Shown: positions 7,136-23,325 of the stretch, piece after piece
Layout of the letters: every line of letters begins with the position of its first letter
How positions within the stretch are numbered: the first letter of the stretch is position 1
Origin: Eledone cirrhosa
Taxonomy: Eukaryota
DNA: 64,000 nt
Reading direction: 5' to 3'
Assembly (NCBI GenBank): GCA_964016885.1
Contig: CAXHJY010000746.1
Location: 186,001 to 250,000 of the forward strand
Position numbers and translations under genes: made by a program
The notes under the pieces: generated by a model
The model's database searches: none
Told to the model about the DNA's origin: nothing
What the model saw: only the letters and a program-made list of their open reading frames with translations

Positions 7136-7192
7136 ATGGCGGAGGGAGTCGATATCGATCTCTACGACAATTTAGAGGAGGATTTCAACCAG
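7136..7192 (+). CDS. CPSF6: CPSF6 (CFIm68) coding exon 1, MAEGVDIDLYDNLEEDFNQ
   Basis: ATG in AAAATGGCGG context; peptide resembles the CPSF6 N-terminus (MADGVDHIDIY..EEFNQ); donor CAG|GTAAGA, phase 0. Confidence 0.95.
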
Positions 7193-8481
7193 GTAAGACC
7201 TTCCGTTCGATGGGGTGGCCACTATGAAGTGTTTATCTAACGTTTGTTGTGTTTATTTGTGTGAAAATGTAGAGAAATTGTGAAATAAAGGCCATCAATG
7301 ATGGCGACTGCCGGCCTTGCCGCCATCTTGCCTTCTTAATCGCACACTTGCTTCTCTCGGGTAATTAATTATATTTATATACTTTGCTGTATATATATAT
7401 ATAAATATATATCTGTTGGTGTGTAGAGTGTAGTGTATATATAAATGTATATACACTTGCTTCTGTGAGATAATTAATTATATTTATATACACAGTTGTG
7501 TATATATATATATTTATTGATGTGTGTAGAGTGTGGTGTGTATATATTTATATATATATATATATATATATAGTATTTACATACACATATATATATGTAT
7601 TGGTGTGTAGATTGTGATGTTTATAATATAGTATAGTATATTATAAACTTGCTTCTCTGGAGTAGTTAATTATATTTATATACGTTGGTATGTGTGTGTG
7701 TATATATATATATATATAGATCGGTGTGTATAGTGTAGTGTGTATATATATATATATATAGATCGGTGTGTATAGTGTAGTGTGTGTGTGTATATATATA
7801 TATACATGCTTTTTGGAGATGATTAATTATATACGCATATTTATATATGTTGGTGTGTGTGTATAGTGCAGCGTATATATATACACTTCCTTGCGTGGGG
7901 TAATTATATTTACATAGTATCTATGTTTATATTGGTGTGTATATTGATTAGTCCGTAATATATATATATATTTATATATTTATATATAGAATTGCTTCTG
8001 TGGAGATAATTAAATATATTTACTATAATTTTTAGATATATATTATACTTTATGTCTATATATATACATATATATATGTGTAGAGTGTAGTGTATATTAT
8101 TAGTATTGTGTGTATATATATATGTTGGTGTGTGTGTATATATATATATATATAGAGAGAGATTGGAGTGTATATATACACTTGTTTCTTTGGGATAATT
8201 GATTATATACACATATATATATCTTTGTGTGTATATAATATATAGTTGTGTGTGTATTTATATATATATATATATATACACACACACATATGTTGGCATG
8301 GGTTGGATGAGTTGGTGTATCTCATGGCACCAGTACTACCATTTTACAGAGTGTACTGGGTGTATATCTCTAGGGAATCTCTCATTATAGTTGCTAGCAA
8401 TATATTTCATAAGACCCCCTCCCCTCCAAGTCCCTCTTTAAAGGATCTAAATTCTAGCTCCCTTTTTTTTTTTAACCCCAG

Positions 8482-8556
8482 GACGCTGACTACAACCATG
8501 ATAGTGACCTTTATGATGATGTCATCACAGCACCCGCCTCCCAAGACGACCTGGAC
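8482..8556 (+). CDS. CPSF6: CPSF6 exon 2, DADYNHDSDLYDDVITAPASQDDLD
   Basis: Poly-T...CAG acceptor, conserved DLYDDVI motif, GAC|GTAAGT donor, 75 nt, phase 0-0. Confidence 0.93.
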
Positions 8557-8574
8557 GTAAGTAGATACTGCTTT

Positions 8575-9093
8575 GCATCATTTAGTTACGTCCCTTTGTG
8601 TTTCTGAGTTCAAAACCCTGGCGATGGTTAGCTTTGCCCTTCATATCCTTACTGGGGTCGATAAAATAACGTACCAATAATGCGCTGGGGTTGATTTTTG
8701 AAGTGGAATGTCGATTAAGTCGACTCCAGTGGATTACTGGTACTTTATAAGGATATGAAATGCAAAGCTAACCATACCGGGATTTGAACTCAGAACCTTT
8801 AGTTACATCCCTTTACCTTCTGGGTTCAAATCCTGCCGAGGTTAGCTTTGCCTTTCATATCCTTACGGTGGGAGGTCAATAAAATATAGTACCTGTAATG
8901 CACTGGGGTTCATTTAATTGACTCCCCTCCATAAAATTGTTGGCCTTGTGCCTAAATCAGAACCCATTGCATCTGTAGATTTCTTCCAGAGATAGGAAGA
9001 ATCGACCCCAGTATTTCACTGGTACTTTTATTTTTATTATCGACCTCGAAAGTATGAAAGGCAAAGTTGACCTCGGCAGGATTTGAACTCAGA
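8575..9093. mobile_element. Four Nin-type SINE fragments arranged +/-/+/-
   Basis: B-box and core in forward orientation at 8575-8697 and 8800-8966, reverse-complemented at 8710-8796 and 9001-9093. Confidence 0.8.
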
Positions 9094-9561
9094 GAGCAGG
9101 AATGAAAACCCCGGGGCATTTTATCTGACCATGTATATAAACTTGTATAGACATGTATACATGGCCTTCCCTCTCAATTTCTGATTCCCTATTAAATATA
9201 TTTTTTGTGTATGTGGCTTTTGTTGTGGGAGCTCTAGTTGCCTTTGTTGTAGTACTTAGTAGGTTGTAGTTGGTGCTGGTGTAGTTGGTGGTTGTGTTGC
9301 TGTTGTAGTTGGTGCTTGTATTGTTGCTTTTGCAGTTTAGGCTGTAGTTGTTGCTGGTGGTATTGTTGCTTTTGTTGTTGTTGCTGGTGTTAGTGTTGTC
9401 ACTTTGCCCTTCTCTTCCTCCCTCCCTCTGCACCATCTCATCCCTCTTTTCTATCTCTCTTCTCACCCCTTTTTCACACTCTCCTTCCCTCTGCTTCTCT
9501 CAACCTCTGTTGTTCTAGCCTGTCTCTCTCTTATACTCTCTCTCTCTCCACCTCCCCACAG

Positions 9562-9648
9562 CTCTATTCCCATGGAGTCGACCCAGAAGCTACACGAGAT
9601 ACGAGAGATCATGAGCGAGCTTCAACCGTCTACTTCGCCAGAAATAGA
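9562..9648 (+). CDS. CPSF6: CPSF6 exon 3 (possibly cassette), LYSHGVDPEATRDTRDHERASTVYFARNR
   Basis: Long pyrimidine tract + CAG, open in frame, AGA|GTAAGT donor, 87 nt, phase 0-0; no recognisable conserved motif. Confidence 0.75.
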
Positions 9649-10708
9649 GTAAGTAGCAGACACCCTCACACCTGCACATTCTACTGGATATATACACGTG
9701 TATGTATGTATATATATATATATATGCACAGATATATAAATGCTAGCATGGAAGAACAGACGTAAAAACGATGATGATATACATGCACACACATCTCCCC
9801 TATGGGAGATTTACCTCTTTTTAAATTGACTGAAGTTTTTATGGTTTTCATTCATTTTATTTTGAAAGTAATATATGTAGGGATGTTTTTGTTTTTATAA
9901 GGGTTTAATTTCATATATTGGTACCTTACTGTGATGAAGAAAACCCAGAAATTCTTAATTGTCCCTCTCTATTGATAAATATACACTCTTTAAAATAGGT
10001 GGTTTTGTGTCATAGATTGTCATGTCAACTTCACCGTATCTTTTGCCAGTCATTGTTTTTTCTCCACTGCCCTGGTGTCCACTCTGTCACTCTAGTAGTT
10101 TACCTGTTATCTCTGACACAAGATTCTTGGCCAGCCTTTCTATATTTGACTTTCTTAATGGTCTCAATTACAGATAAATATAAACACTTTAAAATAAAGT
10201 TTTGTATCAGCGAACCAGGAGTGGTTTGGAACATAACTTAAAGGTTTTTAGATAAATATAATCACTTTAAAATAAAGTTTTGTATCGGAGAACCAGGAGT
10301 GGTTTTGTATGAAAAGAGTTAAATATACACTCTTTAAAATAGGTAGTTTTGTGTCATAAGGTCATTGCACCATCTTCATCTTGTTTCTGACCAGCCTCTG
10401 GTTCTTCTCCACTGCCCTGGTGTCCACTCTGTCGCTCCAATAGTCACCTGTTGTCTCTTGAGACAAGAAATGTGGCCAGCAGCCCTCCTATGTTTTCCCT
10501 TCCTGAAGGTCTCAATTATAGATAAATATAATCAGTTTTGTGTCATAGAACCAGGGAAGCAGGCATTCAGAGTATTGTAGATGCCTGATGGAAGGGAATA
10601 TAAAATCTATCTATGTTGTCTCTATTCCAGCAGGGTGACCCCTGACATGTCAAACACTAGTATCCTGGTCCCTAGTAATATAAAACCTCTGTCTCCTCTT
10701 TATTTCAG

Positions 10709-10813
10709 CATGGAGAACTCCGCCATGAATCCAAGTCAACCTCTTCAGCCCCTATTATGCCTGCTAACTACACTGGCAAAAGAATCAGTTTGTATGTAGG
10801 CAACCTCACTTGG
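10709..10813 (+). CDS. CPSF6: CPSF6 exon 4, start of RRM (YTGKRISLYVGNLTW)
   Basis: TTTCAG acceptor; RNP2 motif matches CPSF6 YTGKRIALYIGNLTW; TGG|GTAAGT donor. Confidence 0.96.
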
Positions 10814-11208
10814 GTAAGTTATTTAAAGTTATATAAGAATCTAACCCATTTTTTACCTACCCCTTTTTATATTATAACTTCCCATGTATTCTTCTCACCA
10901 ACCCTTTTATAGCTTCATATATACCCCTACATATCTCCTATAGTTTCCTATCAACCCTTACATCTATATTTTCACATCTAACCCAACATCTCTCCTATAG
11001 CTTACATTTATAGTTTCATATCTACCCCTATATATCTCCTATAGCCTCATATTTACCCCCTACACCTCTCCTTTAGCTTCAAATGTACCCTTCTCACCTC
11101 TCCTATAGCTTCATATCTACCCCTATATATATCTCCTATAGTTTCATATCTATATTAACTGTTCTGATCCCTAATTCTAAATAAACCCCTAATATTTCTA
11201 TATTACAG

Positions 11209-11312
11209 TGGACCACAGATCAAGACCTTACTGACATAATTGCAGCCATTGGGGTCCTGGATTTGTTGGAGATTAAATTCTACGAAAACAGAGCAAATGG
11301 CCAATCAAAGGG
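11209..11312 (+). CDS. CPSF6: CPSF6 exon 5, RRM (WTTDQDL...[15 protein letters not shown])
   Basis: Diagnostic CFIm68 [10 protein letters not shown] motif; AG/GT boundaries; ends in phase 2. Confidence 0.97.
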
Positions 11313-11364
11313 GTAAGGTTGTTGTTACTGTTGTTGCCCCCCCCCCCCCTCTCTGTCAATCAAA

Positions 11365-11742
11365 TACAGAGTGTACAAGGTGTATTTTGTCATGATTACT
11401 GGCCCTGTCTATATTTAAGGGTCAGCTTGTGAGAGGAAGGTTGCTATGAAAAGGTTTTACCATGACACCAACACTACCACATTACAGAGTGTACTGGGTG
11501 TATTTTGTCATGATTACTGGCCCTGTCTATATTTAAGGGTCAGCTTGTGAGAGGAAGGTTGCTATGAAAAGGTTTTACCATGACACCAACACTACCACAT
11601 TACAGAGTGTGCTGGGTGTATTTTGTCATGATTACTGGCCCTGTCTATATTTAAGGGTCAGCTTGTGAGAGGAAGGTTGCTATGAAAAGGTTTTGCCATG
11701 ACACCAACACTACCACATTACAGAGTGTACTGGGTGTATTTT
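11365..11742. repeat. About 119-bp tandem repeat x3 in CPSF6 intron 5
   Basis: Near-identical units TACAGAGTGTACTGGGTG...CACTACCACAT. Confidence 0.9.
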
Positions 11743-11776
11743 ATGTTTGCTCATCTCAATCTTTTCTCTCTTCCAG

Positions 11777-11946
11777 TTTCGCTGTTGTCGCGGTCGGCTC
11801 TGAAGCTTCGTCTCGGATCATCTTCGATAAGTTGCCGAAGAAAGACATCCACGGGCAGACCCCGATTGTAACCCACTGCAATCGGCAGTCCCTTAACCAG
11901 TTTGAAGCTCAAGCAAGGAAGGGAGAACCCCCACCACCTACAGGAG
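11777..11946 (+). CDS. CPSF6: CPSF6 exon 6, RRM C-terminal half (FAVVAVGSEASSRIIFDKLPKKDIHGQTPIVTHCNRQSLNQFEAQARK)
   Basis: Resembles CPSF6 GSEASSKKLMDLLPKRELHGQNPVVTPCNKQFLSQFE; phase 2 to 1. Confidence 0.96.
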
Positions 11947-12303
11947 GTAAGTCTGTTTTCATCATCATCATCACCGTTTAAAGTCCATTATTCCACGCTA
12001 GCATGGGTTAGACGGGTTGTCCTGTTGTGAGACAAGACAAATCAGGTGACCGTGTCTTTCTCATACAGGGCTGATTTCTGGCTCGGTTTAATACCTGGAT
12101 GCCCTTCCTAATGTCAACCATGTTTACAGAGTGGACTGGGTGCTTTTTGTCCTGACACTTAAACAACCACTTTACAGTGTGGGCCAGATGTTTTTTATCG
12201 TGTAGATTGGGTGCTTTTTGTATATATATATGTGTATACGTATATATATGTATGTTTGTGTGTGTGTATATATATATATATATATTGTCCCCTCTAATTG
12301 CAG

Positions 12304-12480
12304 CTAAAGAGCCGAACAGTAAACCTACTGAAAGAGGACCCAGTGGAAGTGGGAGTGGAAATAGAAGGGAGTCAAGTCGGTACATCTCTCGTAACTCCCG
12401 TACCAACCAGTCTTCCCCACAACAAGGACCTTCTGGTCCCCCGGGGCCTCCTCCTTCAGGCCCTCCTCCACCATACAACG
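12304..12480 (+). CDS. CPSF6: CPSF6 exon 7, linker and start of Pro-rich region
   Basis: CTAATTGCAG acceptor, open in expected frame, ACG|GTAAGA donor, 177 nt, phase 1-1. Confidence 0.9.
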
Positions 12481-12841
12481 GTAAGATTTTTCAATAAACT
12501 CATCATTAGTTTTTGACCCTTTTGCTACCATAACTGCACCCCCTCCTCTTTTCAACCACCCTAAAATGCTACCTCTGGTTTTATAAAACAAATGACCCCC
12601 TTTTTAAAGGATCCATATATAAGTTTAAGTGAATCCCTAAAAATTCTTTAACCTTTCAATACCATAAGTCCACTAGGCCACGGACCTCCACTAAAGTAAT
12701 GTTTTATTTGTCATTCTTTGCCCCTTTATCATTGTACCGGCTTTTTGAAAAAACTTAGGGGCCGTTTATCACATATCCCACAATGCTTCGTGTTAATTAC
12801 AGAACTCTATTATATATATATATATATATATTATATAGTAT

Positions 12842-12940
12842 ATAAGGTGTCCCAAAAATATATACACAAAATCTGTGCATTCTAATAAATATTGACTGTA
12901 CAGGCATGTTAAATGTATACATTTTTGGGGGGTTACCCTG

Positions 12941-12943
<3 letters not shown>
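12842..12943. mobile_element. Tc1/mariner-type MITE; relatives near 4260, 25855-26220 and 50088-50252
   Basis: TA-flanked terminal inverted repeats of the TACAGGGTGTCCCAAAAA type. Confidence 0.6.
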
Positions 12944-12975
<32 letters not shown>

Positions 12976-13426
12976 CATTGTATTACCGTTAATAATAGTA
13001 ATAAAAATAATAATACAACTAATACTAATAATACCAAAAAAAAATGTGTGATATTCATGTCTTACAGCTTTCAAACATTTGAAGAGATCGTATGCAGCGT
13101 TTAGGCTCAGTAAGTTAAACCCACAACAGGCCCCATCTGTCTCAATATCATTTGTATTTTCATATTTGCAACAACAACAACAAAAAAAAAAACAATACAT
13201 CATTTTAAAATATTCGCTATATATAATTACGTATATATATTATAAATCCCGCCGAGGTTAACTTTGCCTTTCATCCTTACGGGGTCGATAAAATAAAGTA
13301 CCAGTAATGTACTGGGTAATTGCTGGTCTTGTGCCAATAGTAGAAACAATTATATTATATTATATTATATATATAGGCGCCTCTACGACTATCGGGAGTT
13401 ACGGGCGCATATATACATAGATACAC

Positions 13427-13457
<31 letters not shown>

Positions 13458-13478
13458 TATACATGTATTATATATATG

Positions 13479-13675
13479 TGAAGGTGTATGGCTTAGTGGT
13501 TAGAGGGTTGGGCTTGCAATCGTGAGGTTGTGAGTTCGATTCTCGGACCGGGTGGTGCGTTGTGTCCTTAAGCAAGACACTTTACTTCACGTTCCTCCAG
13601 TTCACTCAGCTGTAGAAATGAGTTGTGATGTCACTGGTGCCAAGCTGTATCAGCCTTTGCTTTTCCCTTGGACAT
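13479..13675 (+). mobile_element. tRNA-headed SINE with CORE-like central domain
   Basis: TGGCTTAGTGG A-box, GAGTTCGATTC B-box, TTGTGTCCTT..GCAAGACACTT core. Confidence 0.75.
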
Positions 13676-14421
13676 CATATATAGTGTATAAATAATATAT
13701 ATATATAGTGTATAATATATACTGTACATAGAGTATATATAATATATATATACTGTACATAGAGTATATATAATATATACTGTACATAAAGTATATATAT
13801 AGTGTATATATATATGTTGAGTCGTCAGTGGTGCCAAGCTGTATCAGCCAACATCATATATAGGGTAAACATAGTGTATATATAATATATATAGTGTATA
13901 TATGCTGTACATAATGTGTATATATATATATATATATATGTTGAGTCGTCACTGGTGCCAAGCTGTATCGGTCATTGCCTTTCCCTTGGAACAATATCGT
14001 TGGCATGGAGACGGGAGACTGGTATACATGGGTTACTGCTGGTCTTCCATATACAACCTTGCCTGGATTTGTGCCTCTGAGGAGGCCATATATATATATA
14101 TACATATATAGACCCGTCCCACCCTTGCAAGCAGGGAAAAGCGGACGTAAAATGATGATGATGATATATATATAAGGGGATAATACTGCCAGTATAATAT
14201 ATAAGGGGAGATAATACTTCCAGTATAATATATAAGGGGAGATAATACTGCCAGTAATAATATGAATTTTATAAGACTTGGATTATAAAAATAAACCTGG
14301 AAATTTATCTTGAAGGAGAGTTTGTGGATTTGATGTTACAGCCCACATCTATTTAAGTTGAGCTGCAAAGTTTTATCTCATACTAGGTTTCTTGGGTGTT
14401 TTAATGATATATATATACTCA

Positions 14422-14701
14422 ACTCTGGATGTCGGTGAGCATGTCCAGCTAACCTCAGTCTCCTCTGTGTCACTTTTGAGCTGACTTTTGGGATGCTCCC
14501 ATACAGCTCTGAGTTTTTCATCCTTTGGGAGCCCCTACATGGACACACTAGAAGAGGAAAACCAAGGTTAACGTATGTTGATGCCCTAAGGACAGACACT
14601 GGTCTGTTGGATATGCAGGACATGGCAGCGATAATGAGGGACAGAGACTGCTGGAGAGAACTCGTCCATGGATCTCGGGGAATTTTACCCGCCTTAGATA
14701 G
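14422..14701 (+). mobile_element. 5'-inverted RTE-clade LINE 3' fragment
   Basis: NSELYG..RRLRLAGHAHRHPEL on the - strand abutting ILWEP.HG..RGKP..TYVD..DTGL on the + strand; flanking ATATATACTCA direct repeat. Confidence 0.8.
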
Positions 14702-14778
14702 ATATATACTCAGCAATCACACAAATATACACACCTGACTATATAAGACTTAATCCTGTCTGTTTTGTCTCTCTACAG

Positions 14779-14885
14779 GCCCACCCCGACCTGGTGGTCC
14801 CCCTCCACCTGTGCCACCCCCACCAGGGGTCCCACTCGTTGGGCCCCCACCACGACAGCCTGGTGGTCCACCACCTCCGGGAATG
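14779..14885 (+). CDS. CPSF6: CPSF6 exon 8, Pro/Gly-rich
   Basis: CTACAG acceptor, GPPRPGGPPPPVPPPPGV..., ATG|GTAAGT donor, phase 1 to 0. Confidence 0.92.
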
Positions 14886-14972
14886 GTAAGTACAAACATT
14901 GATACTCCTGCTGCTGGTCAGCAGCTGCTGTGAAGAATGAACTCTCTATCTCTATATATATATATATATATG

Positions 14973-15105
14973 AACAAGTATGACCCCGACGGTCTAGAAA
15001 TAGCCGTCGGGGTCATACTTTTTCCTATTTCCCACTCTACTACCCTAAGTATTGAGTACTCTGGTGCGTTATGGTCCATCTGGTTCCTTACCACAATTCC
15101 TTTGT
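14973..15105. mobile_element. Short hairpin-bearing interspersed element (Helentron/HINE-like?); copies at 4933-5030 and 5124-5230
   Basis: 17-bp perfect stem AAGTATGACCCCGACGG/CCGTCGGGGTCATACTT; AACAAG...CTTTGTT ends; sits in (TA)n. Confidence 0.45.
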
Positions 15106-15539
15106 TATATATATATATAAAATTGCAAGTTTGAAGAACTATTAGATAAAATATATACAGTTTTTCCTCTCCCTAATGATTATTTGCTTAATTAATTCTT
15201 CATTGAGCCACACCGTGAAAGGTAGTGACTGTGTCTAATTATATATATATATACCTCTTTGAATTTTATATATATATATATATATCTGTGTGTATATATG
15301 TATTTATACATCTGTATGTATATATATGTGTGGGTGAATGTCTATACATGTCTGTATATATTGTATGTGTGTGTGTATGTATATATATATATACATACAC
15401 ACACACACGTGTGTATATATATATATATATACATGTTTATATATATTATATCTATATAAACACGTATATATATATAATCTGTTAAATTTACTGTTTTGTC
15501 TGTTTCTCCCAGCCTCCCCCTCCCCGACCAGTATATATA

Positions 15540-15584
<45 letters not shown>

Positions 15585-15644
15585 TATATACACGTGTATA
15601 TGTATATAATTTGTTAATTTTCCTGTCTTGTCTATTTCTGCCAG

Positions 15645-15735
15645 CCTCCCCGACCAGTACCACCACCACAGAGAGGTCCACCACCCCCTGATCCCAGATT
15701 AGCTCCACCACGACCAGACTGGGACAGACCAACAG
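15645..15735 (+). CDS. CPSF6: CPSF6 exon 9, PPRPVPPPQRGPPPPDPRLAPPRPDWDRPT
   Basis: Pyrimidine tract + CCAG, CAG|GTGATT donor, phase 0 to 1 fits neighbouring exons. Confidence 0.88.
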
Positions 15736-15760
15736 GTGATTATTATTATAATTATTATTG

Positions 15761-16264
15761 AGGTTTACTTTGCCTTTCATATCGTTACGGGGGTTGATAA
15801 AATAAAGTACCAATAATACACTGGGGTCAATTTAATAGACTTTCCCTTCGCTGAAACTATTATCCTTATTGTTGGATTGACAATAATCGGTAGAGGGTCT
15901 GACAACATTCTTTGTGTCATAGTTATGTCCCTTTACCTTCTGAGTTCAAATCCTGCCGAGGCTAGCTTTGCCTTTCATATCCTTACGGGTTTATTAAAAT
16001 AAAGTACCAGTCACAAACTGGGGTCGATTTAATCGGCTTTCCCCCTCCCCCAAAATTACTGGCCTATACTAGAATTCATTATTTTGGCAGTATCGGTAGA
16101 GGGTCGGACGCCATGCTTTGCAAGCAAAGAGTTACGGCCCTTTATGGTCTGAGTTCAAATCCCGCTGAGGTTAACTTTGCCTTTCATCCTTACCGGGTCG
16201 ATAAAATAAAGTACCAGTAATGCACTGGGATAATTGCTGGCCTTGTGCCAAATGTAGAAACAAT
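15761..16264 (+). mobile_element. Three tandem Nin-type SINE copies in CPSF6 intron 9
   Basis: Repeated B-box, core and AAATAAAGTACC blocks. Confidence 0.85.
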
Positions 16265-16420
16265 CATTATTATTATTATTACTATTACTACTAGAGTAAA
16301 ATCCCATGCTGCCAGTAATTATATATATATACACACACACACAATCAGAATTTTATATATATATATATATATACATCTATACCCTCAATATATCTATATA
16401 TGTCTCTCTCTCGTCAACAG

Positions 16421-16471
16421 ACCACCGACCACACCACAACTGGAACCCTATGGTACCATTCCCAGGCTCAG
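16421..16471 (+). CDS. CPSF6: CPSF6 exon 10 (51 nt, possibly cassette), DHRPHHNWNPMVPFPGS
   Basis: CAACAG acceptor, CAG|GTAACA donor, phase 1-1, open. Confidence 0.75.
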
Positions 16472-16739
16472 GTAACATTGTTACTATTTTGTTCACATTT
16501 TCTAGCCTCTATATATCTATTTATCTATCTATATGTATATCTATCTATCTATATGTCTATCTATCTATCTATATATATCTATCTATCTATTTGTCTATCT
16601 ATATATCTATCTATCTATATGTATATCTATCTATCTATATGTCTATATATCTATCTATATGTCTATCTATCTATCTATCTATCTATTTGTCTATCTATAT
16701 ATCTATCTATCTATATGTCTATCTATCTATATATCTATC

Positions 16740-16779
<40 letters not shown>

Positions 16780-17730
16780 CCTATCTATTTATCTACCTAA
16801 CTATCTATGTGTACAAATGTTATAGTCACGCCAACACCAACCACTTTACAGAGTGTACTGGGTGCTTTTATTGTGTAGATCACCAACATTAGGGAGCTGT
16901 CATGTCCTTGACACAACTGAAGAGTCCTCATCATCATAATCTTCACCACCAACACATCATCACTCCATCATCACCAACACATCACCCCTTCATTACCACT
17001 AGCACTATAATCATCATCACCACTCACCACCACCATCATAATCTTCACCCCCTTCATTACCACTAAGCACCACCATCATCATTGTTTAACATCTATTTTC
17101 CATGCTAGCATGGGTTAGACTTTCTGCCCTGTTATATGGCTGGACATGTCACATGAAATAATGACTTGACTGGATGTTTTTTTGTTTTTTTCTTGCTGTG
17201 ACATCAGCACTACCACTTTACAGAGTGGACTGGGTGTTTTTTATTATCATTTTCTTTATATAACCTGATATATATAGAACATTTTCAAACATCCACACAT
17301 GTTTTTGTTTGTTTTTCTTGCTGTGACATCAGCACTACCACTTTACAGAGTGGACTGGGTGTTTTTTATTATCATTTTCTTTATATAACCTGATATATAT
17401 AGAACATTTTCAAACATCCACACTTTTTTTCACTATATATATATATATGCTTCTACAGGACTTCTATATTAAATTTTGTTGTGTATACTCTACTAATGTA
17501 TTGAGTACCTTACTTACTGTGCTTACCCCTGATTAAACCTGGGATTCACATATACACTATATATATATATTATATATATAATAGACAAATACATCTATAT
17601 ATACACTTACATATACACACATACACACACTTTTCTCACCACCAATGGGGGGGGGGGGTAGGATGTTATGGGTTAACCTTGAATTCTTGGCCCCCCCAAC
17701 TATTTCTATGATTTTCTGTTTCAATTGTAG

Positions 17731-17805
17731 CTTCTTATCCTCCTTCCGGGCCTCCGCCCACACAGTCTGTAGCACCACCCCATGGGGTTCGGCCCCCACC
17801 ACCTG
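17731..17805 (+). CDS. CPSF6: CPSF6 exon 11, SYPPSGPPPTQSVAPPHGVRPPPP
   Basis: TTGTAG acceptor, CTG|GTAAAT donor, 75 nt, phase 1-1, Pro-rich. Confidence 0.85.
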
Positions 17806-18498
17806 GTAAATCTTCTTTCTTTTACTTTCTATCTATCTCTCTCTCTGTTTCCTTATACCTTTCTTTCTCTTTATATCCCTCTCTATTTCCCCCCTCACTC
17901 TCCTTATTCACCCATATCTCTCTCTGTATTTCTATTTATTTCTGTGTCGTCCCATCCCAACCCCTAACCTTGACATGTGTTTAGTGGTGGTGGTGGGGTA
18001 TGTCCCTTTCCCCTTGATTTGATAAGCTTGTGTGTGGGGGGTAGTATTCTGTTTGTAGTGTTTTTCTGGGAGGTGGGGCGAGTTCCGTGTGAGTGTGTGT
18101 GTGTTTCTACTGCCACCCAAGTTTACAGAATGTACACGGTGTATTTTATCTACACGCAAGCTTACTTCATTTCTCATGGCACCAACACCACCTCCATTTG
18201 TACCATCATCATCATCACTACCACCACCATCATCTTTAGAACCCCCGCCTTGACTTTCATAGGTTCCTAACTTTTTGCTATGGTGTCTGGCCAACAAGTT
18301 TACAGAGTGTACTGGGTGTATTATATGATGACTCCAACATACTTGCCTCCCGTGTACCAGGGCTGATTAGCCTCATTTGCATACAGCGCTGTCGGCCTGT
18401 TCTTCCCTAAAATAGAATTAAGGTGTTCACTCTAACATAGCTGTATATATACATACACACACCTATATATATACACACACACACATACATCTATATAC

Positions 18499-18529
<31 letters not shown>

Positions 18530-18715
18530 CACACATACATCTATATACACATACACACACATATATATTCACACACACATCTATATATATACACACATAC
18601 ATCTATATATATATATATATATATATACATACACACACACATACATCTATATATACACACATACATCTATATATACACACATATATATATTGTATATATT
18701 TTCTGTTCGTTCTAG

Positions 18716-18745
18716 CTTCCTTTAATGGCAGCCAACATTGGAAAG
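18716..18745 (+). CDS. CPSF6: Candidate 30-nt alternative micro-exon of CPSF6, (A)SFNGSQHWK
   Basis: TTTTCTGTTCGTTCTAG acceptor, AAG|GTAAAT donor, phase 1-1, no stop; followed by an ACTAAC cluster. Confidence 0.6.
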
Positions 18746-18769
18746 GTAAATATTTTACTGGTTAGACCA

Positions 18770-19030
18770 ATTACTGACCTTTTGACCTTTCTACTGGTTG
18801 CACTAACTACTGACCTCTCCTACAGGTCAGGTCTCACTAACCTCTGACCCTTCTACAGGTCACACTAACACCAACCACTAACCACTCACCTATAGGTCAC
18901 ATGACCTCTGATCTGACCTACAGGTCACAATAACAACTGACCACTGACCATTGAACTGGTCGCACTAACTTCTGACCTTTCTACAGGTCACACTAACACT
19001 GACCTCTGACCTACAAGTCACACTAACAAC
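18770..19030 (+). repeat. Degenerate array of TGACC..AGGTCA hairpins and ACTAAC motifs
   Basis: ACTAAC at 18802, 18836, 18864, 18877, 18964, 18992 and 19022. Confidence 0.8.
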
Positions 19031-20101
19031 TGTTGCTTAATTTAACTTTTTTTTTTCTCTCTGTCTCTCTCTAACCCCTCTCTCTCTCTGTCAGTCTCTA
19101 ATCTCTCCTTCCCTCTCTCTACATTTGTCCATAAAATAAAGTACCAGTAATGCACTGGGGTCAATTTAATCAACTATCCCCTCACCCCCGTGTGCCTAAA
19201 TCATAAATTATTATTATGAATGTTTGCGGAAAGTGTTTTTGTCTCTGTTAGGGAGGGACAATGCCCATGGCTCTTTCTACCACCCTGGGGCCACTAAGAA
19301 TTTGTGGATGGTATGTGTAAAATATCCTCAAACAAAAAACCCCATCCTGAATGTTGCTTGTTTTTTTGTTTTGAATTTTTATTTTTTTTATATATTAACC
19401 CTTTTGTTACCATATTACTAATGGAACATAACTTAACCAAGGTTAAACTGTTCTTTTTTGGGGGGGTTTTCAAATAATTCTGAAAATTTAATAAAATGTC
19501 AAGAATTTGGACTTTATTTTCTTTATTATTAAGTTGGCGTTTGGAACATAACTTAACAAAGGTTCTTACATAAAATTACACAAATAGTTTTATATCATAA
19601 ACCCAGGCGTGATGGTCACTTGTGGATTGATATAGAAAGGTCTTAAATAGCAAGACACGGTCCCACACGTGGAAGGGCTTCAATTCAAACCCTAGAGTCT
19701 GTTATTATAATACGGGGCTGGAACCAAAGGGGTTAATGAAGAATTTATAGGGATTTACTAAAATTATTAATTGTTTCATTATAAAAAAAGGTATTTCTAA
19801 CTTAAATGGCTTAAAATTATGTCGGAAGGTTTTAAATTTATATATGGTTCCTTTAAAAGGGGGATAGGTTTGTTTTATAGGAACAGGGGCTGTTTTTTAA
19901 GGGGACAGTTCGTACATAGAATTATGATAGAAGAAAGTTTCTAAATAAATATAAACACTGAGCATTGACCCCTTAAAAACCCTTCACAAATGTGAGTTTT
20001 GACCCCCAAACCCACTGTAATCCATTTATTTTTCATATGACCCCTAAACTTAACTTTATTGTTCCGGCATCATTAAAACTTTATATTTTTCTCTGTTTCA
20101 G

Positions 20102-20232
20102 GCGGTCCCCCGCTACACCAACCTCCTCCAGTGTCTGCCCCACCCCCAGGGCACCCTCCAGCACCAGCTCCACATGTCAATCCTGCATTCTTCCCTCCAC
20201 AACATGGCCAGCCCCCACCTGCAGGACCAATG
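20102..20232 (+). CDS. CPSF6: CPSF6 exon 12 with PAPHVNPAFFPP motif
   Basis: Conserved CPSF6 PAPHVNPAFF motif; TTTCAG acceptor, ATG|GTAAGT donor; phase 1 to 0. Confidence 0.96.
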
Positions 20233-20510
20233 GTAAGTACACCCAGTACACTCTGTAAAGTGGAAGTGTTGGTGTTGTGATAAAATATATATATATATAT
20301 AATGTATGTTTGTAAAAATGAAACAAATAACAAAGCAACCGACACAGTACATTGAAGAAATATTATTAGTTCAACGCTTGATGTAGTAAGAAAAGAGTCT
20401 TAACGTTTTGGACACTGGTCCTTCGTCAGAAGTTAGTTAGAAATAAAAAGGTATACATGTGTTATAAGATGATCATAGATTTACTGAAACAACGTATTTT
20501 TCTTTCCCAG

Positions 20511-20576
20511 ATTCCTGTGGGTCAGTTTGAAAGCCTTCCGTTCCTTGATCCTGATGTCAAATTCCACGCCAACCAT
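20511..20576 (+). CDS. CPSF6: Candidate 66-nt cassette exon of CPSF6, IPVGQFESLPFLDPDVKFHANH
   Basis: Strong acceptor TTTTTCTTTCCCAG, open 22 codons in phase 0, weak donor CAT|GTAAAT. Confidence 0.45.
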
Positions 20577-21004
20577 GTAAATACGATTTAATAACATTAT
20601 TTTGTATTTCTTTAAGGTTCCTGTCTCTCCAAGCCCCACTTCCTCATCTTGGCTTAACCCTTTAGCATTTACATTATATTTACCAGCTCTGCTTCTATGA
20701 AACAAAACCCCCCATTTTAAAGGGTTCCAATTTAAATTAAAATATTCCAACATAATTTTATATAAGAACCTTATATTAAATTACTATCTTAGTAATAAAA
20801 TAATTAATAATTTTAGTAAATCCTTCAAAATTCTTCATTAATTAATTAATTAATTAATTAAAATACATTAGAAATACAGTCATGAAAAGGATTAAGTCTT
20901 TAATACTGTAAATTTCCACAATCTGTCCACTAGTAAAGGTACTGTAAACATTTAGTCCACCATTAAAGATGCTTTTTTTAAAACCATCCCCACAACTTAT
21001 ATTG

Positions 21005-21265
21005 TGGGGTTTTGGCTAGTGGTAAGGGTGTTGGACTTAGGATCATCTTGTCATGGGTTCAAGTCCTGGGCTTGGTTGTGTGTTTTGTTCTTGAGCAAAA
21101 CACTTCAAGTTGCTCCAGTATACTCAGTTGTAAATGAGAATCACTGGCAATAGCTGGGAGTTTAACCCTGCGATGGACTAGTGTCCTATCCAGGAGGGAG
21201 TCTTGTACTCTCAGTCGCTTCACGCCATGAAACCGGGATAAGCTCTGGCCTAATGAACCTTACAA
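21005..21265 (+). mobile_element. tRNA/CORE-like SINE with AACCCTGCGATGGACTAG tail; copies at 40255-40450 (+) and 52690-52940 (-)
   Basis: A/B boxes, core and tail shared among three copies. Confidence 0.75.
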
Positions 21266-21331
21266 GCCCCTATACCAAATTCTGATTTAAATATTCTCAC
21301 CTCTAACTCCCTGTTGTTCTTGCTTTTTCAG

Positions 21332-21420
21332 CCCCCACATTCACAACCAGGAGACATGTATGTCAGACCACCACCCCCAGCTCCTTATCCTAACGACCCT
21401 TATGGGAGACCCCCAGAAAG
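21332..21420 (+). CDS. CPSF6: CPSF6 exon 13, PPHSQPGDMYVRPPPPAPYPNDPYGRPPE
   Basis: DPYGRPP motif as in CPSF6; TTTTCAG acceptor, AAG|GTAAGC donor; phase 0 to 2. Confidence 0.93.
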
Positions 21421-22053
21421 GTAAGCCCATATCTGATGTCTTTGATGTGTTTGTGTTTCTAGCTGTATATTTTAAGATACCACCACCACCACCACTACAA
21501 ACACCACCACCACTACTACCACCGCCTAAGGCACCACCACCCCCACTACTACTATTACAACCATCACATCTATCACCACTACTGTTGAAGACACTACTAC
21601 CACCACCACCACCACTTTCAAAGGTATATACTGTGTACATCTATATATCATTGTCATCATTTTACATCTGCTTTTCCCTGCTTGCAAGGACCATATATCC
21701 AAGAGAATATACAATATATTTTATACAAAGCACATACAAAAATATAAAATTCCCTTTATATATATATACAATATATTGTGTATTCTTTTGGATATACAGC
21801 AAAAGCTTCTATTTCTACTAAATATATATTATAAGTACAGATTAAAGTTTAAGCAAAGAATCGCTGAAGATCCCGTAAAAGGGTGAAAGCAGTGATTCTT
21901 TGCTTAAACTTTAATTTGTACATATAATAAATATTTGCTGTACGGGTTTATATATAATCCTTATCAAGCCCTCTTCGAATTTTAATCTTCACATTTATTA
22001 TTACTATATATGTAAATATAATGTATATATATTGTGTATGTTTGCTGTTTCAG

Positions 22054-22166
22054 ACATGAATCTGCTTCCCCAGCCATCAGTGAACAAGAATTTGAAGAGA
22101 TTTTCCAGCGAAATAAGACAGTTTCCAGTAGTGCAATTTCTCGTGCAGTACAGGACGCCAGTGCAG
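22054..22166 (+). CDS. CPSF6: CPSF6 exon 14, helical domain ([31 protein letters not shown])
   Basis: Close to CPSF6 [30 protein letters not shown]; phase 2 to 1. Confidence 0.97.
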
Positions 22167-22348
22167 GTGGGTTACCGCTCTTGTTATTACATGTACGCAT
22201 GTCACCATCATTGTCGTCTTACATTCTCTGTCTCACTCTACACCATACATATAATCGTTTTATACACACACACACACATATTTAACTGTAATTTATAAAT
22301 TACTGTGTTGTTTACCTGTAATTAATTTGTGTTTGTTTGTTTTTACAG

Positions 22349-22496
22349 GTGACTTTGCTAGCGCCATAGAGACATTGGTGACGGCAATCTCGCTCATAAA
22401 ACAGTCAAAGATTGCAGGGGACGATCGCTGTAAGATCCTGATTAGTTCATTGCAGGACACCCTGCATGGTATTGAGGAGAAATCTTACGGATCCAA
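22349..22496 (+). CDS. CPSF6: CPSF6 exon 15 ([48 protein letters not shown])
   Basis: Highly conserved CPSF6 block; phase 1 to 2. Confidence 0.97.
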
Positions 22497-22594
22497 GTAA
22501 GTGAGGACATATTTTAAACTTTTAACATTTAACATCTGAAACCACACTAGCGAGACATTTTTCTGAAGTATAGACTCTTAATATAACTACATCA

Positions 22595-23040
22595 TATTAA
22601 AGTCTTTACTGTAATACTGTAAATTTTCACAACAATCTGTCCACCAGTAAAGATACTATAAACATTTAGTACAAAACAACACTATGACTACATCACATTA
22701 AATATTAAAGTCTTTACTGTAATACTGTAAATTTTCACAACAATCTGTCCACCAGTAAAGATACTATAAACATTTAGTACAAAACAACACTATGACTACA
22801 TCACATTAAATATTAAAGTCTTTACTGTAATACTGTAAATATTCACAACAATCTGTCCACCAGTAAAGATACTATAAACATTTAGTACAAAACAACACTA
22901 TGACTACATCACATTAAATATTAAAGTCTTTACTGTAATACTGTAAATATTCACAACAATCTGTCCACCAGTAAAGATACTATAAACATTTAGTACAAAA
23001 CAACACTATGACTACATCACATTAAATATTAAAGTCTTTG
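22595..23040. repeat. About 106-bp tandem repeat x4 in CPSF6 intron 15
   Basis: CAATCTGTCCACCAGTAAAGATACTATAAACATTTAGTAC... repeated. Confidence 0.92.
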
Positions 23041-23129
23041 CTGTGATTTTACAAATTTTCTCCAGTTTTTCTTACTTTTCGTTGGGTATTTCTCTGTCTC
23101 TAACAATGTTGGGTCCTTTCTTGTTGCAG

Positions 23130-23325
23130 GAGCAGTATGCGTCGTTCACGGTCTCGCGAGAGAGAGAGGGACCGAGATCGAGAGAAGAGCAGTCGCAGGC
23201 ACCGATCTCGCAGCCGTGACCGAGAGTACAGGGAACGGAGCCGTGATCGCGACCGATATCATGAGGAGCGACACCGCGACAGGGACCGTGACCGAGAAAG
23301 AGAGAGAGAGTATCGGCGTCACTGA
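23130..23325 (+). CDS. CPSF6: CPSF6 last coding exon, RS/RE/RD domain ending EREYRRH*
   Basis: TTGCAG acceptor, RS-like tail, TGA at 23323-23325; exon continues to AAT|GTAAGT donor at 23379/23380. Confidence 0.95.

Follow-up and report, generated by a model that had tools for sequence, protein, structure and literature searches.

Stem-loops that cover the donor are known from MAPT exon 10 and SMN2 exon 7, and the neural micro-exons of the SRRM3/4 (eMIC) class are defined by a UGC just above the acceptor. Our comparisons draw on excerpts of PMC13004596, PMC9122611, PMC3469465, PMC7404189, PMC1920255, PMC6511849 and PMC12090733. According to the excerpts of PMC9122611 and PMC13004596, inclusion in muscle accompanies QKI binding or UACUAAY in the intron downstream, while the opposite pattern is reported for brain, so that the direction of the effect is not fixed. 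The same excerpts report that bipartite elements are bound by dimeric STAR proteins and that QKI-type repression of a reporter is relieved when ACUAAC becomes ACUGAC. CUAAC repeats mediate the action of the nematode STAR protein ASD-2 in the available part of PMC3469465, and PMC7404189, in the part available, deals with structure-dependent splicing of MAPT exon 10 and SMN2 exon 7 in general terms.

We found in an octopod CPSF6 gene a genuine conserved micro-exon followed by a single-copy array of STAR-protein motifs, with a plausible donor-covering hairpin in the fold models. The parts are all of known kinds: downstream QKI elements, donor hairpins and micro-exons in disordered regions. With the QKI-activated exons of NF1, CLSTN1 and MARK3, as excerpted from PMC9122611 and PMC13004596, the locus shares the motif, its position within ~300 nt below the exon and tandem sites suited to a dimer; unlike them, it has seven tandem-duplicated sites spaced by predicted hairpins, lies in a mollusc and concerns a 3'-end processing factor, its binding and regulation being putative. 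Intron 1A of C. elegans unc-60, the target of ASD-2, is likewise invertebrate and has repeated intronic CUAAC, but there, in the available text of PMC3469465, the repeats lie at the 3' splice site beside a SUP-12 UGUGUG and repress removal of the intron, whereas the octopod array lies below a donor, over 1 kb away from the acceptor, and holds no UGUG stretch. As at MAPT exon 10 and SMN2 exon 7, the exon end and the donor GU are predicted to pair with the proximal intron; in contrast to those exons, the helix predicted here spans two alternative donors, stands next to a STAR motif and has an array unit as its 3' arm. The exon resembles SRRM3/4 micro-exons in being short, frame-preserving and situated in a disordered region. 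It was rejected as a member of that class, having 0 TGC at -30 to -3 of its acceptor (thus no UGC within 30 nt above it), and its 30 nt exceed the 3-27 nt given for the class in the excerpt of PMC9122611.

The window, that is the whole 64,000-nt stretch analysed, contains the following parts of the gene.

7136 to 23325, plus strand: CPSF6 (CFIm68) coding span with at least 19 coding exons (exon model)
17731 to 17805, plus strand: upstream exon, 75 nt, phase 1-1, with a homologous peptide in O. sinensis and decapodiform proteins
18441 to 18713, plus strand: AG-free stretch, made up mainly of TA/CA microsatellite, ahead of a weak TAG acceptor (acceptor scan)
18716 to 18745, plus strand: micro-exon, 30 nt, phase 1-1, encoding (A)SFNGSQHWK(G), placed by its TAG and GTAAAT ends, homologous peptides and an RNA-like contig
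18746 to 18760, plus strand: in-frame 15-nt extension to a second donor at 18761, adding GKYFT (O. sinensis gene model)
20102 to 20232, plus strand: downstream exon with the conserved PAPHVNPAFF motif (exon model; RNA-like contig piece 20100-20232)

The reading frame runs on the plus strand from an ATG at 7136 to a stop that ends at 23325. One window exon was 86-96% identical to cephalopod CPSF6 proteins, the exon 22351-22494 matched Pfam RSLD_CPSF6, and the protein shows the RRM, Pro-rich region, N-terminal region of the RSLD and RS/RD/RE tail of CPSF6/CFIm68. Pfam gave no match for a single window exon with part of the RRM, taken alone; on close homologues of the window protein both RRM and RSLD were matched. 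A sequence-only reading made earlier had proposed a frame-preserving AG...GT segment of 30 nt, joined at 17805/18716 and 18745/20102, and the exon model bears out both the junctions and a frame that stays open whether the segment is included or skipped. In a 17-exon model the protein has 601 aa with the micro-exon and 591 aa without it, both open to the same stop. Short, frame-preserving, bounded by AG and GT and conserved in its peptide, the segment has the properties of a protein-coding micro-exon. The second in-frame donor at +15 and the donor stem-loop described below are both absent from the sequence-only reading. The O. sinensis protein XP_036369817.1, a gene model only, agrees with 18715-18762 in 16 of 16 residues. 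The AG-free zone before the acceptor of the micro-exon measures 276 nt, the longest among 18 acceptors, and no YTNAY was found within -60 to -15 of that acceptor. A CTAAC stands at about -283 (18432), directly before the AG-free zone; it is a possible distant branch point, or a mere outcome of the microsatellite.

Conservation of the exon in other cephalopods, which had been put forward as a check, was found in octopod gene models. CAI9744040.1 of O. vulgaris and XP_036369817.1 of O. sinensis are each identical to the micro-exon peptide at 9 of 9 residues and GAB1610325.1 of Argonauta at 7 of 9, these models being perhaps interdependent. The peptide is kept in models of three of four octopod species; the model of O. 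bimaculoides lacks the micro-exon and also the flanking conserved exon, and is therefore uninformative.

Four of eight listed sequencing runs, none of the eight being on record as RNA, were compared over 18700-20300. Run X4 (88 million letters, RNA-like, library type off record) has the organism label and study of the probable source but comes from a different sample, and in it one 1750-nt contig at depth 33 covers 20100-20232. Its depth is 33 at 18731 and at 18738 but falls to 0 at 18756; averaged over the 54-nt bin it is 18.4, the value that 30 nt at depth 33 would give. The first two letters of the piece 20100-20232 are those of the micro-exon end, which a skipped or extended form would not give. 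From depth and ends we infer that the short form, spliced to 20102, was the main path in that sample; the 18745-20102 joint is absent among the X4 matches listed, and inclusion is read from the depth and ends of the contig. By this contig arithmetic the micro-exon is almost certainly used in RNA. The 15-nt extension was not covered by the X4 contig. No skipped octopod isoform was seen in the octopod models or in the one X4 contig, and contigs cannot show minor forms.

Downstream of the micro-exon lies the array of motifs.

18752 to 19030, plus strand: degenerate tandem array, unit ~25-34 nt, a TGACC-loop-GGTCA hairpin followed by CACTAAC (repeat and motif scans)
18802 to 18807, plus strand: ACTAAC site 1, directly 3' of the donor stem-loop (motif scan, fold)
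18836 to 18841, plus strand: ACTAAC site 2, with A>G at 18839 in a relative (motif scan, contig of the relative)
18864 to 18882, plus strand: ACTAAC sites 3 and 4, 7 nt apart, fitting a bipartite STAR element, with no listed change in the relative
18964 to 19027, plus strand: ACTAAC sites 5-7, unaligned in the relative (motif and repeat scans)

All seven ACTAAC hexamers claimed for this stretch were found, starting at 18802, 18836, 18864, 18877, 18964, 18992 and 19022 (+57, 91, 119, 132, 219, 247 and 277 below the micro-exon), together with five ACTGAC, one ACTCAC and one AATAAC. As in STAR/QKI cassette exons, bipartite ACUAAY elements thus stand in the proximal downstream intron (7 sites, +57 to +277). 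The array holds 7 of the 14 plus-strand ACTAAC of the 64 kb, with at most two per 230 nt elsewhere, and no ACTAAY was found within 300 nt below the other 17 of the 18 donors examined. The Poisson P for this clustering is 7e-15, which overstates the case because the sites are copies of one tandem unit and not independent. A shuffle of the whole window gave 53 ACTAAY seen against 149 expected; it was distorted by microsatellites, and we did not use this control. TGACC occurs 11 times in the array and GGTCA five times, against about 0.6 per kb outside. Positions 18958-19011 are 87% identical to 18830-18883, and by their sequence sites 5-7 resemble a recent copy of the array's 5' part. Behind the last ACTAAC (19022) comes a long pyrimidine tract with CAG at 19094, a branch-point/acceptor layout with no exon identified behind it.

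We asked of the DNA runs X1 and X2, made from one sample that is possibly the one behind the window, how often the array occurs. A single contig covered 18700-19155 without differences (depth 6.7 and 10.6), and depth was flat over 18700-18969 in both runs at 80% likeness. Dispersed repeats adjacent to the array reached depths of 1e5-1e6 in the same runs, and within the window the unit pattern occurs in the array only. The single-copy depth and the confined unit pattern rule out a dispersed transposon-derived repeat, the finding that had been named in advance as one that would overturn the proposal. Rfam gave no match on exon and array; its five sub-threshold miRNA matches all fell on the upstream microsatellite.

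Conservation of the array could be followed in one relative (organism B), with a divided outcome. Its 586-nt contig can be aligned with 18700-18891, from which it differs by 20 letters and 4 gaps (88% identity); the alignment ends after 146 intron nt at 80% likeness, the contig continuing for 391 letters. The 5' half of the array is therefore matched, whereas the 3' half is unaligned and the motif is not significantly conserved above background (1 change over 24 motif nt against 2.8 expected, P 0.19, with listed changes at 17 of 146 intron nt). Three of the four covered ACTAAC sites have no listed change, while site 2 reads ACUGAC. No change is listed in the 38 nt that surround sites 3 and 4 (P 0.074), and a 1-nt deletion, placed by inference somewhere in 18795-18808, could affect site 1. 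The relative gave no cover on the exon 20102-20232 or on most of the intron, which we did not count as evidence because such holes are uninformative.

Folding added three sets of predicted features.

18728 to 18801, plus strand: predicted three-helix stem-loop, z -4.06, the lowest z of 18 donors
18810 to 18830, plus strand: small hairpin of the earlier reading (predicted fold)
~18845-62, 18914-27, 18945-62, 18973-90 and 19007-20, plus strand: further small hairpins (predicted fold)

The helices of the stem-loop join 18728-34 with 18795-801, 18739-47 with 18785-93 (over the donor GU) and 18760-65 with 18774-79 (over the second donor), so that the 3' two-thirds of the exon, the donor GU and the +15 donor are predicted to pair with the first repeat units. 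The micro-exon likewise finds its best duplex in the downstream intron at the first unit. The segment 18716-18810 folds at -25.2 kcal/mol (z -4.06, 0 of 200 shuffles), and matched windows at the 17 other donors gave z of -1.84 or weaker. Opening the donor was predicted to cost 7.0 kcal/mol, fifth of 18, and 4 of the 18 donors were predicted to be at least 0.96 paired. Simulated footprints lowered the opening cost in two of five settings (to 5.5 and 4.8) and not in the other three.

The 19 listed changes of the relative, a set from one species that omits 4 gap letters and 1 change, touch four predicted pairs and break none (null mean 3.9; 8 of 1500). Together they shift the energy from -40.8 to -51.0 kcal/mol (null -36.4 +/- 3.9; 1 of 1500). 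It is the donor hairpin that carries this signal (1 of 1500); the small hairpins alone were not significant (105 and 352 of 1500). One exonic G-U pair becomes A-U, at a position for which the repeat consensus does not account. No two-sided compensatory pair was found in the stem-loop with this one relative. Given these predictions and the support from the relative, the donor stem-loop probably forms and is conserved.

The UGACC/AGGUCA hairpins that had been described between the motifs were recovered in the predicted folds, at 18810-18830 and further along the array. The suggestion that they present the motifs single-stranded also agrees with the folds: over the seven motifs the predicted probability of being unpaired averages 0.75, compared with 0.49 +/- 0.10 after shuffling of the array around them, and 2 of 200 shuffled controls get as high. 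Six of the seven sites range from 0.68 to 0.95 and site 7 stands at 0.29. The G of all eight AGs in the array is predicted to be paired at P >= 0.99.

We give about an even chance to the reading that the micro-exon is a weak, hairpin-covered cassette exon activated by a putative STAR protein (Quaking/How) bound downstream. Judged from its sequence, the exon would be weak through its TAG acceptor, the lack of a near branch-point match and a donor held in a predicted helix. The small UGACC/GGUCA hairpins are predicted to keep the ACUAAC sites open and to hide AGs that would otherwise be cryptic acceptors behind perfect branch-point motifs. There is a reasonable likelihood that a dimeric STAR protein on the seven-motif array would raise inclusion, possibly by fraying the base of the stem beside site 1. 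Inclusion would then be promoted in cells rich in the putative Quaking/How orthologue, and skipping would be the likely outcome in STAR-poor tissue. The position and motif of the array fit the rule, invoked earlier, that QKI bound downstream promotes inclusion (PMC9122611 and PMC13004596, as excerpted). This position rule, bipartite binding and the ASD-2 precedent favour the STAR-activated reading.

Plus/minus inserts are annotated at the aligned protein position in four mollusc genera: Sinanodonta (15 aa, 1 of 2 sequences), Dreissena (7 aa, 6 of 11), Pomacea (6 aa, 3 of 5) and Littorina (4 aa, 7 of 14). Equivalence of position is by protein alignment and not by exon boundaries, and four proteins without the anchor motif were dropped from the survey. 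Three decapodiform-like proteins carry a 6-aa insert, and a Sepia model does not. No insert at this position was found in Mytilus (9), oysters (7), Ruditapes (4), Gigantopelta (2) or Haliotis (3), and five Mya isoforms (four members and the representative) showed no variation there. These inserts make a cassette exon plausible in octopods. They also count against the view that the exon is constitutive or nearly so, the array being an SF1/U2-type general enhancer that defines a short, weak exon and no tissue switch. A troponin T micro-exon is reportedly bridged by SF1 that acts downstream of it. The exon is present in all informative octopod sequences, the relative tolerates ACUGAC at site 2, and the array mixes seven ACUAAC with five ACUGAC, which in the excerpted literature is a branch point and not a QKI element. 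A conserved helix over the donor would make little sense for such an exon, however, and tandem motifs suit dimeric STAR proteins, whereas SF1 is without a dimerisation domain in the excerpts at hand. We consider this explanation unlikely.

The peptide encoded by the Sinanodonta insert scored 18 (BLOSUM62) against the window peptide, with a shuffle P of 0.016 and 10 of 8444 background 15-mers reaching 18, and the Pomacea insert begins with ASF. We regard homology of these inserts to the octopod exon as suggestive and did not accept it at P 0.016. Among 182 proteins, 105 with the anchor motif, a loose peptide pattern matched only the three octopod proteins and the Sinanodonta bivalve; it had been written after those proteins were known.

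It is equally improbable, in our judgement, that the array is a neutral minisatellite, in which slippage multiplied a self-complementary unit, possibly descended from the exon end by inverted copying, with motifs and hairpins as by-products. Its tandem structure with a recent internal duplication would be expected, its units can be loosely aligned to the exon end plus donor in reverse complement, and the CPSF6 introns here are full of local repeats. The non-significant motif conservation and the unaligned 3' half in the relative fit as well, and pairs would also accrue without selection if the repeats drifted toward a self-complementary consensus. Among six units, 0 of 5 small-hairpin pairs were changed on both sides. 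What such an origin does not lead one to expect is the placement of the array exactly below the micro-exon and below 0 of 17 other donors, or the alignment of the relative over the first 146 intron nt and not beyond. Loops vary more than stems and the ACTAAC motif among the units, and the changes of the relative avoid breaking pairs, including at the exonic position outside the repeat consensus.

Heavy recoding is established in coleoid cephalopods, and the exon-intron helix could be an ADAR duplex of the GluA2 R/G kind that recodes the micro-exon (e.g. Q to R, K to R/E) or donor -2, the ACUAAC sites being secondary. The exon end is predicted to pair across the donor with the nearby intron, an A faces a C in an internal loop, and in the excerpted literature the GluR-B R/G site is two nucleotides upstream of its donor. 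In the X4 contig no A>G falls within the exon, and the one A>G place listed for it is 19163; contigs drop minor variants, so this excludes only majority editing in that sample. The duplex is also short (7+9+6 bp, interrupted) and would leave seven open ACUAAC sites unexplained, and we think editing of this kind quite improbable.

Although five of the seven ACUAAC are followed by YAG/GUCA 14-27 nt on (branch A 19, 18, 27, 14 and 18 nt from the AG), it is highly unlikely that the units serve as decoy or recursive 3' splice sites, each with a branch point, a brief pyrimidine run and YAG/GU, that divert U2 or remove the intron stepwise. The AGs lie in predicted stems, the pyrimidine runs are short, GUCAC and GUCAG make poor donors, 18754-19023 is uncovered in X4 (a weak point, from contigs only) and the intron measures only 1.36 kb.

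Under the STAR-activated reading the product would gain an aromatic/basic decapeptide in its Pro-rich region, which would more likely tune local interactions. Human CPSF6 isoforms of 588 and 551 residues, in the excerpt of PMC6511849, also differ in internal residues upstream of the RS-like domain; the difference is 37 residues there and 10 here, and the likeness is one of region. The excerpts of PMC6511849 and PMC12090733 assign FIP1L1 binding, nuclear import and phase separation to the RS-like domain of CPSF6. Since FIP1L1 contact and phase separation belong to that domain and not to the Pro-rich region, the link from a STAR protein to global poly(A)-site choice, with which the sequence-only reading had ended, is the weakest step, and an effect of the decapeptide on that choice is very doubtful. 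It is just as doubtful that one unit, arisen as an antisense copy of the exon's donor, has both roles, the first copy locking the donor in a hairpin, every copy offering an open Quaking site, amplification setting the strength of the switch by copy number and the STAR protein retuning 3'-UTR length by tissue, at a place in CFIm68 where cassette micro-exons recur among molluscs.

A literature search, outside which most subscription papers lie, gave no paper on the micro-exon or on splicing of CPSF6 in cephalopods. CPSF6 goes unmentioned in the main text of bioRxiv 10.64898/2026.09.05.749416, in the part available; its supplements, on tissue-specific exons of O. bimaculoides, may bear on inclusion levels. 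The locus offers a compact, testable cis-element for splicing regulation in cephalopods and a possible case of a splicing enhancer made by tandem amplification, with an anti-donor helix arm plus a STAR site as the unit. If the exon is tissue-regulated, a STAR protein would be tied to a core 3'-end factor at a place where several mollusc lineages have cassette inserts.

Several observations concern other parts of the gene. The frame-preserving exons 13068-13109, 20511-20576, 9562-9648 and 16421-16471 are absent from some cephalopod proteins and on that ground are probably cassettes. Above the 42-nt exon at 13068 stand two ACTAAT (13018 and 13024), 43-49 nt from its acceptor; such tandem branch points are the arrangement described for exons that QKI represses, and regulation could there run in the opposite direction. 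A 13-aa exon (SSSTLGQ-like) that O. vulgaris, O. sinensis and Argonauta have between the 16421 and 17731 exons was not found in the window; it replaces the 17731 exon in the O. vulgaris and Argonauta models, and both are present in O. sinensis. SPTLGSCH can be read in one frame after an AG at ~16879, maybe as a decayed copy of that exon or by chance. Motif search and tblastn detected no remnant of the decapodiform VIPR insert or the SSTLGQ exon in 16472-20101. Positions 15513-15535 partially duplicate the acceptor and first codons of the 15645 exon and end in a TA/TG microsatellite; they are a tandem duplication remnant or a decoy acceptor. Near-identical direct repeats of ~120-130 nt, in two to three or more copies, occupy introns at 17174-17430, ~11370-11745 and ~22590-23020 and are either true tandem duplications or assembly artefacts.
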